The notes beneath the pieces are model-generated. The model searched no databases and was not told the DNA's origin. It saw nothing but the letters and a program-made list of their open reading frames with translations. Position numbers and translations under genes: made by a program. 33,768 nucleotides of DNA from a virus, in the UHGV virus genome UHGV-0181805. One strand, given 5' to 3'. Of this stretch, positions 28,470 to 33,768 are shown piece by piece. Position 1 is the stretch's first letter; each line of letters opens with the position of its first letter.

Positions 28470-28766
28470 TCAGAATTGCATATCAATTTGCTTAAAATCC
28501 TCGGTGGCGGCCGGGGATTTTTTCTTTGTGATTTCATCAAGCGCATACTTAAAAGCCCTACTAATCGGACTGATGTCTGATGCCATTCCAAAAGCACACA
28601 AGACCGAAGCAATAAACCTCCAGTCCGTTCTGCTTATCTTCGATTCATGACAGCCAATCATCTTTGCCAGACCGCGCTGGGTAAGCGTTGACAGGTTGAT
28701 GAGTAAATCAGTTTCAGCGCGATCAATTTCTCGCTGTGTTGGCTTGCTGTAACTTGCTTGTGTCAT
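28470..28766 (-). CDS. cII: CII-like transcriptional activator
   Basis: 98 aa; HTH ...GLAKMIGCHESKISR.DW.....L... and C-terminal KKKSPAATEDFKQIDMQF versus lambda CII ...KKRPAATERSEQIQMEF. Confidence 0.75.
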   Translation of the reverse strand: MTQASYSKPTQREIDRAETDLLINLSTLTQRGLAKMIGCHESKISRTDWRFIASVLCAFGMASDISPISRAFKYALDEITKKKSPAATEDFKQIDMQF

Positions 28767-28851: not shown

Positions 28852-28897
28852 TCGCTTTGTCAGCGACGTAGGACGAATGTCCATTGTGAAAAGAGCG
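28852..28897 (-). promoter_or_regulatory. nutR-like site: boxA CGCTCTTTTC (28888..28897) and boxB hairpin UCGCU-GACAA-AGCGA (28852..28866)
   Basis: Minus-strand reading; boxB has the same GACAA pentaloop as the nutL boxB; located between cro and cII. Confidence 0.55.
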
Positions 28898-29251: not shown

Positions 29252-29956
29252 ATGGAAAACAAAGATATTCGCAAATCGAATCTGGCGTTTTTGCTAGATG
29301 AGCATAAAAAAATCGCGGGTAACACTAATGCAAGCTTTGCCGATAAGCTTGGGGTTAGCCCTTCTCAACTCACGCAAGTCTCCGGTGAAAAAAGCACTCG
29401 AAACATAGGGGATAAACTAGCAAGAAAATTTGAAGCCGCACTTGGGTTACCTAATGGGTGGCTTGATTTGGTACATGATGTAACACCAATTGCATCATGC
29501 TCAGATTCTTTAACTTTTGTCGGTCAGGTAAGAAAAGGGTTAGTGCGCGTGGTTGGTGAGGCAATTCTTGGTGTTGATGGTGCCATCGAGATGACCGAAG
29601 AGCGCGATGGGTGGCTCAAAATTTATAGCGATGATCCAGATGCCTTTGGCCTTCGTGTGAAAGGAGACAGCATGTGGCCTAGAATAAAATCAGGAGAATA
29701 TGTACTCATTGAGCCTAACACCAAAGTATTCCCGGGTGATGAGGTGTTTGTCAGAACCGTTGAAGGACACAACATGATTAAGGTTCTTGGCTATGACAGA
29801 GATGGAGAATACCAGTTTACAAGCATCAACCAGGACCATAGGCCAATAACGTTGCCTTATCATCAAGTAGCAAAGGTGGAGTATGTGGCTGGTATTCTGA
29901 AGCAATCTCGCCATCTGGATGACATCGAGGCAAGGGAGTGGCTGAAAAGTTCGTGA
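29252..29956 (+). CDS. cI: CI-type prophage repressor (HTH plus LexA-like S24 autopeptidase domain)
   Basis: 234 aa; N-terminal HTH region; C-terminal ...GDSMWPRIKSGEYVLIEP...GDEVFVRTVEGHNMIKVL... with Ser-Lys dyad context. Confidence 0.85.
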   Translation: MENKDIRKSNLAFLLDEHKKIAGNTNASFADKLGVSPSQLTQVSGEKSTRNIGDKLARKFEAALGLPNGWLDLVHDVTPIASCSDSLTFVGQVRKGLVRVVGEAILGVDGAIEMTEERDGWLKIYSDDPDAFGLRVKGDSMWPRIKSGEYVLIEPNTKVFPGDEVFVRTVEGHNMIKVLGYDRDGEYQFTSINQDHRPITLPYHQVAKVEYVAGILKQSRHLDDIEAREWLKSS

Positions 29957-30382
29957 CTTCATCGTCACATAGCTGATAGCCAATGGCCTGAAGAGACGTT
30001 TGGGTGAAGAGGATAGATGGAGTTTAATGGCCATGAGTATCACGCGGTCAAAAAGAAGTTCATCTATTCATTGAAAGCATAAGGCCATCTGAGTATATCC
30101 GTAATGATCTGGATATTGTCTATAACATCAATGACCGGACAATAGATATCGGTGAGCAGCGTCCTGTATGGCAGGGTGAGGCAGGTGAAAAAAACGTCCT
30201 GCCATCAACAAGAATCAAGTGCATCAGCTCTCTGGACAGATGGAAAATTTATTGGATGCAAAAAGATATGAAATAACACCTGTATAGCACGGAGCTTTCT
30301 CTGACCGATGCACTTGAAGTTGTTAGGGCTGACCCAGCCTGCTGTTTCTTTAGGTAAGAGAAAAGAGATTTAGGAGATGAAA

Positions 30383-30409
30383 GGTCGCAGAGGTGCGGCC
30401 TTTTTTATT
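30383..30409 (+). terminator. Intrinsic terminator about 430 nt downstream of cI
   Basis: GGUCGCA-gagg-UGCGGCC hairpin followed by TTTTTTATT. Confidence 0.65.
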
Positions 30410-30433
30410 GAGAGTGGATCTTGAACGGAAATT

Positions 30434-30477
30434 CTCAAGACTTGAGTCTTGCATGCAAATCAATTCCTGGATAAACT
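30434..30477 (+). promoter_or_regulatory. Candidate promoter with overlapping palindromic operator for the 173-aa gene
   Basis: Perfect palindrome CTCAAGaCTTGAG (30434..30446); TTGCAT (30449..30454) - 17 nt - TAAACT (30472..30477). Confidence 0.4.
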
Positions 30478-30509
30478 CGATCTGAGTCAATAACTTAGAG
30501 AGAGAGCAA

Positions 30510-31031
30510 ATGGCAAAGTCAAACGTTAGCGTGCAGGCATTCAAGGACTTCCTTGAAGAGCTTATGTCGCTGAACATAATGAAGGAGGCCACCGCTCGAA
30601 ATTTAAAAAACTCATCCGCTCGCCTCTTAACGGTAGTCCAAGAAGAGGAAATGGGTGATGTTACTCAGCTTGATGTGAATGAGCTTGCCGAGCGATACAT
30701 CAACGCAACTGAGCCGAAGCCTAGCGACAGCAGCATTACTGCATATAAAAGCCGCATGGAAAGTGCAATCAAAAAGTTTGTAGCTTTCCAGTCTGGTGAA
30801 GAAATCCCATACACTCCGATTGACAAAGAATCCAGTGAGGAAAAAGATTTGACTGGCGAACCAACAAAAGTCGAAGGCAAGGCTAATGCACTTCATACCT
30901 ATGATCTTCCAGTAGTTCTTCGACCTGAATCAGGGGTTACAGTAACGATTAAAGGCATTCCTAACGATATCACAAACGAAGAAGCCGAACGCATCTCTTC
31001 AATTCTGAAGGTTTACGTTCGGCCTCAATAA
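30510..31031 (+). CDS. Hypothetical 173-aa soluble acidic protein in the immunity-region cargo slot
   Basis: Clean ORF with GAGAG upstream; no TM segment or recognisable catalytic motif; sits between cI and pL where lambda carries rexAB and P22 sieB. Confidence 0.6.
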   Translation: MAKSNVSVQAFKDFLEELMSLNIMKEATARNLKNSSARLLTVVQEEEMGDVTQLDVNELAERYINATEPKPSDSSITAYKSRMESAIKKFVAFQSGEEIPYTPIDKESSEEKDLTGEPTKVEGKANALHTYDLPVVLRPESGVTVTIKGIPNDITNEEAERISSILKVYVRPQ

Positions 31032-31334
31032 TGCAAAAGCATTCAGCACAATGTCCAACTCCCCAGTCCGACATTGATGCTGTTTAACCAGAGCCTCCAA
31101 AAGGAGCCCTTGTTAAGGTACACAATATTTGCGATGTAACCTTAGCGCGTCTGGTACATTTTTTCAAGCGGTTGTAGGGCTGCCGCCAATATGAGAAAAC
31201 ACAGATGTCTACATACAATTTGAATGACCAATTCGATCGAGAAGTTCATGTGAATGCCTATGAACGGATAAGGCATGGAAATCTTGAACATGTGTGTGAG
31301 CATTATCGCTCAAGGCCACACCGCTAATCATCAA

Positions 31335-31360
31335 CCCGGCCTCAGCGCCGGGTTTTCTTT
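31335..31360 (+). terminator. Intrinsic terminator downstream of the 173-aa gene
   Basis: CCCGGC-ctcagc-GCCGGG followed by TTTTCTTT. Confidence 0.6.
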
Positions 31361-31538
31361 GCCTCTCGATCCCCCACCTAAAAAAAACATAACTCATTGT
31401 ATTTATTGAAAAACTGATTGATACAACTTGCTAAACCACGCAATCCAGATCTCCCTCAAATCTCTTTATTTATCCTGTCGAATTCCTACAACAAAATAAA
31501 ACACCATAAGAATCAATACGATATTTGAAAATCAAAAG

Positions 31539-31584
31539 AATTTATCATTTTGCTATTGCCATTAATTTATCATTCCGATAAAGT
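31539..31584 (+). promoter_or_regulatory. OL operators and candidate pL (-35 TTGCCA 31556..31561, -10 TAAAGT 31579..31584)
   Basis: 17-bp palindrome TTTATCattccGATAAA (31566..31582) in the promoter spacer; additional AATTTATCATT copy at 31539..31549; same motif and same -10 hexamer as OR/pR. Confidence 0.5.
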
Positions 31585-31652
31585 TTGCCCATCAGCAGGA
31601 CGCACTACTCACCAGGGCGGTGAATATACAACGATTCGAATATGAATCTACG

Positions 31653-31667
31653 GCGCTGACAAAGCGC
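31653..31667 (+). promoter_or_regulatory. nutL boxB RNA hairpin (P22 type)
   Basis: GCGCTGACAAAGCGC is identical to the P22 nutL boxB sequence as I recall it; about 60 nt downstream of candidate pL; matches the P22-like Arg-rich motif of the N protein. Confidence 0.7.
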
Positions 31668-31977
31668 AATAACCAAAGTGAACTTTGGGGTGTGGTGAAG
31701 CCAGCTAGTCACTGGCAAGTGCTTACCTACTGTTGAGCGGTGAAGCGCTCCCAACGCTAGCAATAGCGTGGACGAGATGGGGAGCCGCGGGCGATAAGGC
31801 CGCCATAACGCGCACGTTGTCGCATGGAAAAATCACTGGGGTGCCGGTTATACCCCTCCGAATGAGACTCAACAAGCTGGAGCTAGACTACCAGCCACCA
31901 CACCACCAAAGTTCATCAGGAGGTCTATATGACACGCAGAGCGCAATAACCAAAGTGAACTTTGGGGTGTGGTGAAG
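31663..31977 (+). repeat. Perfect 38-bp direct repeat A: copies 31663..31700 and 31940..31977
   Basis: AGCGCAATAACCAAAGTGAACTTTGGGGTGTGGTGAAG present twice; contains local hairpin CCAAAG-tgaa-CTTTGG. Confidence 0.9.
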
Positions 31978-32121
31978 GGTTCATGGACGGGAATATGTCG
32001 CACGTAAAGCGGCGAGGCCTGCGGGACTATTGCCGAATTGAAGTAGGCCGAAACAGGTCGAAATGGGTCTCCCACCTACCACACCACCAAAGTTCATCAG
32101 GAGGTCTATATGACACGCAGA
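31897..32121 (+). repeat. Perfect 44-bp direct repeat B: copies 31897..31940 and 32078..32121, each with SD and ATG
   Basis: ACCACACCACCAAAGTTCATCAGGAGGTCTATATGACACGCAGA present twice; second copy is the N start, first copy starts a 6-codon ORF. Confidence 0.9.
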
Positions 32122-32493
32122 ACTCAGTTCAAAGGCAATTCACGTTCTCGTCGTCGTGAGCGTTTAAAGGCAAAGGCATTAGCTAACGGCGTACTGGCCC
32201 GCGAAGAAGCAATAAGTTCAGAAGTATTACACCGCCCTACTCTAAGCAGAGCGCAGATTCAGGCTAAAGGTACTCACGAAACGCCTGAGCGCATAGAAGA
32301 CGCTAAGCCAATTAAGTTCATGGCACAGGACGTGATCTGGCAACAGAAAGAATACAGACGCAATCTGGAGCGAGCGGCCATTGTGTACGCGAATGAGTTT
32401 GGACATAAGCAACCAGAAACTGGTGTATGTCTTCCAAACGTAGCCATTTACTCGGCAGGCTACCGGAAATCAAAACAACTGACGGCGAGGTAA
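32110..32493 (+). CDS. N: Transcription antiterminator N (P22 gene 24-like)
   Basis: 127 aa; N-terminal Arg-rich motif GNSRSRRRERLKAKA (compare P22 N GNAKTRRHERRRKLA); C-terminus LPNVAIYSAGYRKSKQLTAR versus recalled P22 ...LPGVALYAAGHRKSKQITAR. Confidence 0.8.
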   Translation: MTRRTQFKGNSRSRRRERLKAKALANGVLAREEAISSEVLHRPTLSRAQIQAKGTHETPERIEDAKPIKFMAQDVIWQQKEYRRNLERAAIVYANEFGHKQPETGVCLPNVAIYSAGYRKSKQLTAR

Positions 32494-32721
32494 GTGATGA
32501 ATCAGACATACATTCCATCATGCTTGAGAAATCTGCCAAAGCAGAAAGCAAAGCCCCGCAAGCAAGCCATAAAGGACGCTAAGGCAGAGGTTATTGATCA
32601 AGCAATACAATTGCTCAGGGAGGAGTTAAGAAGTGGCAAGCTCGAAGGAATGATGATGCCCTATCAGCGCGGATATCTATCGGCGATTAGTAAGTTGGAA
32701 GTATTGAAGAGTGAATTATGA
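32494..32721 (+). CDS. Hypothetical early-left protein, 75 aa
   Basis: ORF directly after N in the pL operon. Confidence 0.45.
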   Translation: MMNQTYIPSCLRNLPKQKAKPRKQAIKDAKAEVIDQAIQLLREELRSGKLEGMMMPYQRGYLSAISKLEVLKSEL

Positions 32722-32785
32722 ACTATCTGGAATTTCCGGATGGTTCATTGTTTTGGCAGCAAACCAATTATTTGAGAGCTGATAC

Positions 32786-33028
32786 ATGAGAGTAAAAACT
32801 ATGGGCGCAAGCCCATTAAGCGGTCGTATTTTTCAAGGAACATTAAACACTGAAAAAGGAATGTGGGTAGGAAAGAAAGAAGATGTCACCGATCAGGCAG
32901 TTAGGGCAGTAGCCGAACACATGATGATAAAAGACCAGAAATATGCATACGAAACGAAGGATGGCAAATGGCTGATAATAAGTCATCAACTGGTTGATAA
33001 ATTACCAGAAGAGTTTGTTGATGGTTAA
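32786..33028 (+). CDS. Hypothetical early-left protein, 80 aa
   Basis: ORF in pL operon. Confidence 0.45.
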   Translation: MRVKTMGASPLSGRIFQGTLNTEKGMWVGKKEDVTDQAVRAVAEHMMIKDQKYAYETKDGKWLIISHQLVDKLPEEFVDG

Positions 33029-33053
33029 ATTTGCTTTGGCATAAACAACAGAG

Positions 33054-33347
33054 GTGGATATGAAAGAGTTTAAGGGTACGCCTGGTAAATGGAAGTACAC
33101 GGTTAGAAACGTCAACGAGATGATGACTACGTTCCATGGTGTGACGATTGGTGACACATACATTGAAGCAGCAACAAGAAATGAAAGGGAGGATGCGCTA
33201 CTGATAGCAGCAGCTCCTGACCTTCTCGAAGCACTTCAGTTATTACTTAAGCAAACCAAAAATAGAACAACGACAACATATCCAGAATGGTATGGAGCTG
33301 TTAATAAAGGTATCGCAGCAATCAGAAAAGCTCTTGGGGATAAGTAA
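33054..33347 (+). CDS. Hypothetical early-left protein, 97 aa
   Basis: ORF with GAGG upstream; pL operon. Confidence 0.45.
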   Translation: MDMKEFKGTPGKWKYTVRNVNEMMTTFHGVTIGDTYIEAATRNEREDALLIAAAPDLLEALQLLLKQTKNRTTTTYPEWYGAVNKGIAAIRKALGDK

Positions 33348-33535
33348 TGAAAGTAAAAATAACTGCTTCTAATACCAGTTTTGTTAGTGTTGGTGATATT
33401 ACAGAAGTAATAACAAACCATGATGGAACACAAGTTATGTGGTCTGATTTTTGTAAAAGATATGAGCGAGTCACTTGGTGTAAACTCGTATGGGGAGTCG
33501 AATACGAAGAATTACCTGAAATGCATGACGAATAA
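33347..33535 (+). CDS. Hypothetical early-left protein, 62 aa
   Basis: ORF; TAATG overlap with preceding gene. Confidence 0.4.
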   Translation: MKVKITASNTSFVSVGDITEVITNHDGTQVMWSDFCKRYERVTWCKLVWGVEYEELPEMHDE

Positions 33536-33628
33536 GCACTGTGTATTCATTCCAACGAGTGAATACACGGAGCAATGTCGCTCGTAACTAAACAGGAGCC
33601 GACTTGTTCTGATTATTGGAAATCTTCT

Positions 33629-33657
33629 TTGCCCTCTAATGTGAGGGCAATTTTTTT
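33629..33657 (+). terminator. Intrinsic terminator in the early-left operon
   Basis: TTGCCCTC-taatg-TGAGGGCAA followed by TTTTTTTG; preceded by a 9-bp-stem hairpin at 33541..33568. Confidence 0.6.
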
Positions 33658-33768
33658 GACGGAGGATATATGAGTGAAGTAACAGATTTGTAAGCGTGCA
33701 GTGAGAACCGTATTGACGAAGTGAAGCTGGTCAGGCAGGCAGAGTACCCCGCCACGGGAGCAGAGCAC

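Follow-up and report, generated by a model that had tools for sequence, protein, structure and literature searches.

In phage lambda, the N protein bound at NUTL represses translation of N, and cleavage of the leader by RNase III relieves that repression. The lambda leader is arranged in the order NUTL, RNase III-sensitive hairpin, N start site (Steege et al. 1987; Kameyama et al. 1991; Wilson et al. 1997, 2002). About 200 bp of highly structured leader separate nutL from N downstream of it, and N regulates its own expression, with autorepression depending on both nutL and the structured leader (PMC5725501). The N mRNA is regulated by RNase III (PMC8708148), an enzyme with several targets in lambda; one account of these targets lists Steege et al. 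1987, on the leader of the N gene, among its references (PMC5371410). Leaders of this kind also belong to genomes in which mosaic exchange of modules is known, as in the work on lambdoid phages by Juhala et al. 2000 that is cited in PMC4104026.

Here we describe the N leader of UHGV virus genome UHGV-0181805, of which we analyzed one stretch of 33,768 nucleotides (the window). The window is a P22-like mosaic prophage, at best about 94% identical to E212, Kapi1, CUS-3 and E. coli prophages. Across positions 9000-33768, any complete E. coli genome or phage record was only about 93-95% identical, at a coverage of 67% or less. Identity to E. coli phages rises to 99-100% in the N-leader region alone. 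The window is strongly mosaic.

Organization of the N leader

The immunity region has the layout CI-like repressor, 173-aa ORF, terminator, pL, nutL, leader and N. Its features, and the parts of the leader that are discussed below, are as follows.

29252-29956: CI-like repressor gene, part of the immunity-region layout
31333-31354: terminator before pL
31556-31584, plus strand: pL-like promoter, TTGCCA-17-TAAAGT
31600-31667, plus strand: nutL, which aligns to the nutL annotated in 933W and includes a GATTC/GAATC spacer hairpin at 31633-31648
31653-31667, plus strand: boxB, GCGCTGACAAAGCGC
31663-31700, plus strand: repeat A1, with a helix arm at 31678-31697
31701-31896, plus strand: X1, the interior of hairpin 1, the single-copy allele in Sf6, HK544, HK446, mEp213, E. 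coli CX12 and L139
31897-31940, plus strand: repeat B1, with a helix arm at 31896-31916, a duplicated SD at 31918-31923 and duplicated N codons 1-4 at 31929-31940
31929-31949, plus strand: mini-ORF MTRRAQ with its stop, consisting of N codons 1-4 followed by GCG CAA TAA from the boxB 3' half and repeat A (junction alignment)
31940-31941, plus strand: novel joint, ACGCAGA joined to GCGCAA, with 1 nt (A, 31940) common to both parental sequences
31940-31977, plus strand: repeat A2, with a helix arm at 31955-31974
31978-32077, plus strand: X2, the interior of hairpin 2, an allele also carried by 933W, AU5Stx1, mEp506 and most IMG/VR loci
32078-32121, plus strand: repeat B2, with a helix arm at 32077-32097 and the SD at 32099-32104, then N codons 1-4
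32110-32493, plus strand: antitermination gene N (Pfam N_peptide, E = 3e-15; 126/127 residues identical to 933W N by BLASTP)

A sequence-only reading of the window had described two interleaved perfect repeats between boxB and N, and a repeat search of the window agreed with it. Repeat A is perfect over 38 nt (41 nt at 98%) and repeat B over 44 nt (58 nt at 91%), each occurs twice, and the order is A1..B1-A2..B2. The copies of A start 277 nt apart and those of B 181 nt apart. Position 31940 is both the last base of B1 and the first base of A2, and boxB overlaps A1, which begins within the 3' stem of boxB. Even when two mismatches were allowed, the core of A was seen twice in the window, compared with 0.07 occurrences expected by chance.

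Repeat B contains AGGAGG and ATGACACGCAGA, and the B2 copy of ATGACACGCAGA is the start of N, with the true start codon at 32110. In B1, the AGGAGG at 31918-31923 precedes an ATG at 31929, which opens a six-codon reading frame (ATG ACA CGC AGA GCG CAA TAA) encoding MTRRAQ. The stop codon (TAA, 31947-31949) lies inside A2, just as the earlier reading had it. The length that it predicted for the leader, about 520 nt and longer than that of lambda, also agrees with ours: based on the homology of CATCAGCAGGACGCACT to lambda pL +1, the pL transcript would start at about 31591, giving a predicted leader of about 519 nt, whereas that of lambda has 222 nt and those of 933W-type phages have about 242 nt.

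We made several further observations in the surrounding region. Within the stretch that aligns to 933W nutL, the small hairpin GATTC-GAATAT-GAATC (31633-31648) stands 4 nt upstream of boxB; a dyad of this kind has been described between boxA and boxB in H-19B-type nut sites. A boxB-like sequence, TCGCTGACAAAGCGA, is found on the minus strand at 28852-28866, adjoins a CII-like gene (28470-28766, minus strand) and has the same loop as the boxB of nutL; it is presumably nutR. The 173-aa ORF (30510-31031, plus strand) occupies the place of rex, with the CI-like repressor on one side and the terminator on the other, and is flanked by untranslated gaps at 29957-30509 and 31032-31332. It had no Pfam match and is a member of PHROG 2602, a family of unknown function; the gene could be expressed from the prophage and serve in exclusion or defence.

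The A:B helix

Repeats A and B are complementary to one another. In the duplex fold, A and B form 20 bp with one bulged A, at predicted energies of -32.7 and -31.1 kcal/mol; the pair listing gives 19 consecutive pairs plus the bulged A, and the ungapped repeat finder caught only 14-nt arms of this complementarity. The sequence-only estimate of about 19 nt agrees with this, but its placement of the stem ends 2-4 nt before each SD needs a minor correction, because the helix ends 1 nt ahead of each AGGAGG. In the predicted folds, two guanines of the SD are paired as well, with the CC upstream of A.

The same helix is present in lambda. Between nutL and the N SD, at the matching position, lambda has GGCTTTGGGGTGTGTG...CACACACCACCAAAGC, which folds to the same bulged helix, and the helix core CTTTGGGGTGTG / CACACCACCAAAG is shared, bulged A included. 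Both helices of the window (31678-31916 and 31955-32097) lie in the predicted pL transcript between boxB and the N SD. In sequence, the A:B helix is nearly base for base that of lambda, and it is covarying or kept in other leader types, so that the earlier proposal of an RNase III control element for N fits the identity of this helix. Cleavage of the A:B helix by RNase III would be expected here from homology to lambda. A scan of positions 30000-33768 with Rfam covariance models gave no match at E <= 1.

Comparison of the helix among leaders pointed to conservation of the pairing. Across 16 distinct arm pairs, 95% of cells were paired, compared with 35-52% when the partner was slid by 1-3 columns. 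In this set 13 of the 20 helix pairs were invariant, part of which comes from loci having been fished with exact A and B words, and three outer pairs were altered on both sides between N types (GC/UA, AU/CG and GC/AU), a covariation that rests on a few lineages. A fourth allele, X4, was found in two loci (L135 and L136, both at 1085-1190), where GGTGAAT/ATTCACC replaces GGTGTGGTG/CACCACACC and the bulge is a G, not an A. The X4 leaders fold alike, have the same 933W-type nutL and encode an identical N protein. With these comparisons, we conclude that the A:B helix is a predicted double-stranded RNA of about two turns (20 bp, -31 to -33 kcal/mol) that is maintained in evolution as RNA structure.

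Single-copy relatives and the origin of the tandem

The sequence-only reading had proposed an alignment of related prophages in search of covariation or single-copy ancestry. Besides the covariation of the helix described above, we found single-copy relatives with either X1 or X2. The Stx phages 933W and AU5Stx1, and phage mEp506, have one unit, boxB-A-X2-B-N, and align to the window with a clean 277-bp gap. They match unit 2 and N of the window (leader 99-100% identical; N 126/127 in 933W), and differ in that the window adds 277 bp, composed of A-X1-B and N codons 1-4, between boxB and the X2 unit. X1 is 99.6% identical in Sf6, HK544, HK446, HK633, mEp213, mEp043 and Sf101, where it is flanked by a lambda-type nutL and N, and it occurs with a 933W-type nutL and N in E. 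coli prophages, e.g. CX12. The leaders of Sf6, HK544, HK446, mEp213, CX12 and L139, an E. coli chromosome contig, are 99.6-100% identical to unit 1, and L139 also shares the whole immunity region and N. All of them differ from the window in having no second unit, and Sf6 and HK544 also differ in their lambda-type nutL and N.

Metagenomic loci gave the same picture. A second copy of A was found in 0 of the 120 IMG/VR loci fished with the A core. The spacing from A to B in these loci was 122 nt (X2) in 87, 217-218 nt (X1) in 24, 133 nt in three, and 66 nt and 60 nt in one each. X1 and X2 were found in free combination with nutL/N modules of at least four types, and alignment of X1, X2 and the lambda interior did not rise above shuffled controls.

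We also observed that the arms of the N-leader helix are near-constant across lambdoid phages (loci L011-L130, L010 and L135). The hairpin interiors comprise at least six unrelated sequences (those with spacings of 60, 66, 122, 133 and 218 nt, plus those of lambda and X4), and these reassort with at least four unrelated nutL/N modules. The base of the N-leader hairpin thus looks like a structure under selection that also serves as a joint for recombination.

A comparison with L139 located the junction. Base by base, L139 and the window differ between 30728 and 32558 in two respects only: a 1-nt indel in an A run, and the 181-bp X2 unit (31941-32121), which is absent from L139. This extra unit begins in the 3' half of boxB (GCGCAATAACC...), continues with A, X2, B and the SD, and ends at N codon 4 (...ATGACACGCAGA). 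At the left joint, ACGCAGAGCGCAA, ACGCAGA is joined to GCGCAA and the parents share a single A, a microhomology of 1 nt. The extra segment measures 181 bp relative to an X1 parent and 277 bp relative to an X2 parent. These features are consistent with an illegitimate recombination in which a segment from the boxB 3' half to N codon 4 would have been joined into the same position of a related leader. Two histories would then fit: a single crossover, unequal and illegitimate, of an X1 phage with an X2 phage that shared its N haplotype, or one illegitimate joint combined with a homologous one. The mini-ORF would be a by-product, with the copied N start reading into boxB and A sequence, because such a frame follows automatically from the joint.

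We then asked where else the tandem occurs. Neither 50,697 phage records nor 5,426 complete E. coli genomes contained a place covering at least 80% of a tandem-spanning query. Junction words of 32 nt and 25 nt were absent from IMG/VR and JGI metagenomes, and the true junction was not found in GTDB species representatives. Three hits to a 23-nt junction word in GTDB (L004 3619-3641, L005 and L006) were discarded as chance matches, since they lie in a gene of Clostridia MAGs (...GHDTQSAITA...) with no other similarity to the window; they show that short junction words need flank checks. Exact look-up of the two ORFs that span the junction (80 aa on the plus strand and 68 aa on the minus strand) returned no record. 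The tandem rests on a single assembly.

One argument and two other ideas were dropped. A drop in BLAST identity of L139 at the junction had spoken for a one-step crossover between phages, but L139 matches the window without a break at the junction, through the end of N and on to 32558. The idea of a second nut site at this joint was rejected because CGC-AGA-GCG makes only a 3-bp stem with a 3-nt loop, unlike boxB. The interiors were also considered as prophage sRNAs of the AgvB/AsxR/Pas type, which sit at the pR' moron site and not in the N leader.

The relatives are single-copy with X1 or X2 and the tandem junction was found nowhere else searched, so the other earlier suggestion, a recombination scar from module exchange, holds for the doubling. 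Taken together, we estimate a probability of about 0.8 that A:B pairing forms the closing helix of the RNase III-sensitive hairpin of a lambda-family leader between nutL and the N ribosome binding site, and that this hairpin was doubled in the window by illegitimate recombination. The doubling is probably a rare, near-neutral recombination scar in a known element. It is probably an incidental structural variant that was previously unreported.

Folding and expected behaviour of the tandem leader

The whole leader was predicted to fold more stably than shuffled sequences (z = -4.9). The sequence-only reading had proposed A1:B1 plus A2:B2 or, alternatively, B1:A2, and when the leader was folded both sets of pairings were indeed found and were close in energy. 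In the minimum-energy fold the helices are nested, with A1:B2 outside and B1:A2 inside, and the inner loop encloses the decoy SD and mini-ORF. Of a total of about 200 kcal/mol, the sequential fold (A1:B1 + A2:B2) falls short by 4.5, a difference no larger than the error of such energy calculations. In equilibrium folds of the growing transcript, which disregard kinetics, ribosomes and the N/Nus complex, A1:B1 forms first, B1 shifts to A2 once A2 has been made, and A1 then takes B2. B2 is paired in every complete predicted fold. For the N SD, the spacer and the AUG, the probability of being unpaired differed by no more than 0.01 among the tandem, X1-only and X2-only leaders, and the decoy start site was predicted to be at least as open as the true N start.

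The tandem leader carries two complete allelic hairpins, hairpin 1 with X1 (31678-31916) and hairpin 2 with X2 (31955-32097). In our model, the N start site would retain its usual structural setting, because B2 would always be paired with one of the two A copies. RNase III would cut both helices in either topology. The products would be the nutL RNA, the interiors, a short fragment that bears the decoy start, and an N mRNA with its usual 5' end. N expression would be little changed, and the leader would behave much like a single-copy leader. Through the direct repeats of 41-58 nt, the tandem could revert to one or the other single-copy allele. N autorepression could be altered by the extra 277 nt, or by the presence of a decoy in the usual position of the N start relative to nutL.

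We weighed this model against three other explanations. The sequence-only reading had seen in the leader an evolved attenuator-like switch, in which the level of N would depend on whether the decoy six-codon ORF is translated and on which pairing prevails, A1:B1/A2:B2 or B1:A2. The small energy difference between the pairings, the movement of B1 from A1 to A2 in the growing transcript and the predicted openness of the decoy start speak for such a switch, and the mini-ORF stop lies 6 nt before the A2 arm, where a terminating ribosome would be expected to open the outer pairs. However, no terminator-like site was found between 31591 and 32110, nor another output element in the leader, and since B2 is paired both ways and the N SD and AUG are predicted to be as accessible as in single-copy leaders, the leader lacks the defining features of an attenuator. 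Freeing B2 would also forgo a helix of about -31 kcal/mol, the mini-ORF has no regulatory codons, being N codons 1-4 plus fortuitous sequence, and the arrangement is unique rather than conserved. We therefore consider a switch highly improbable. That the tandem never existed in one molecule, and is an assembly or amplification chimera of X1-type and X2-type phages in the same sample, is quite improbable. In favor of a chimera, both parental leaders are common, often with identical nutL and N, and the junction is seen in the window only, but the parents share only 1 nt at the joint and the flanks on either side are continuous with a single haplotype, that of L139. A k-mer graph would also contain no path from the N start back to boxB, so that a graph assembler would not be expected to build this joint.

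The remaining explanation accepts a real duplication and holds that it alters regulation: in the sequential fold the decoy sits one hairpin after nutL, so that N/Nus autorepression would hit the decoy and the true N start would escape. Autorepression in lambda needs nutL and a structured leader (PMC5725501). The geometry of nutL, hairpin and SD is exactly reproduced for the decoy, and the sequential fold is predicted to form first during transcription. Against this, the nested A1:B2 fold is predicted to be slightly more stable and would return nutL to the side of the real N start, RNase III cleavage reportedly abolishes autorepression anyway, and the arrangement occurs once, with no sign of selection. 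Altered regulation is thus unlikely. It is similarly quite improbable that the tandem is a functional variant in which the decoy absorbs N/Nus repression, more N is made at low RNase III, and the direct repeats allow low-frequency switching to the single-copy alleles. We favor an RNase III-sensitive hairpin of the lambda type that was doubled by illegitimate recombination.

For the biology of N regulation, a doubled hairpin of this kind changes little in principle, because the underlying element is textbook lambda biology, and its value is a modest one, of a practical kind. In the window, two RNase III hairpins and a decoy start stand naturally between nutL and the N start, which offers a test of distance and RNA folding in relaying N/Nus repression from nutL. 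In many lambdoid phages the arms are near base-for-base constant and the 60-200-nt interior is swapped among unrelated sequences and nutL/N modules, which suggests that only the hairpin base is under selection, doubling as a recombination joint.

Compared with the lambda N-leader hairpin, the hairpins of the window share their position in the pL transcript and a nearly identical closing helix (CUUUGGGGUGUG.../...CACACCACCAAAG, with the bulged A) that ends just before the SD. They differ in that two stand in tandem where lambda has one, in their unrelated interiors, in a boxB with the sequence GCGCUGACAAAGCGC and in a 933W-type N. The leader resembles the trp, his and pheA leader-peptide attenuators in having a short upstream ORF and RNA segments with more than one possible pairing, whereas it differs from them in having no terminator, regulatory codons or mutually exclusive output state, and in an arrangement that is not conserved. 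The closest parallel in origin is module exchange among lambdoid phages: X1, X2 and the other interiors are exchanged among nutL/N types, and the breakpoints fall within the helix arms, which are conserved. The exchange in the window differs from this in being unequal and illegitimate, with both alleles kept in tandem rather than one replaced by the other.
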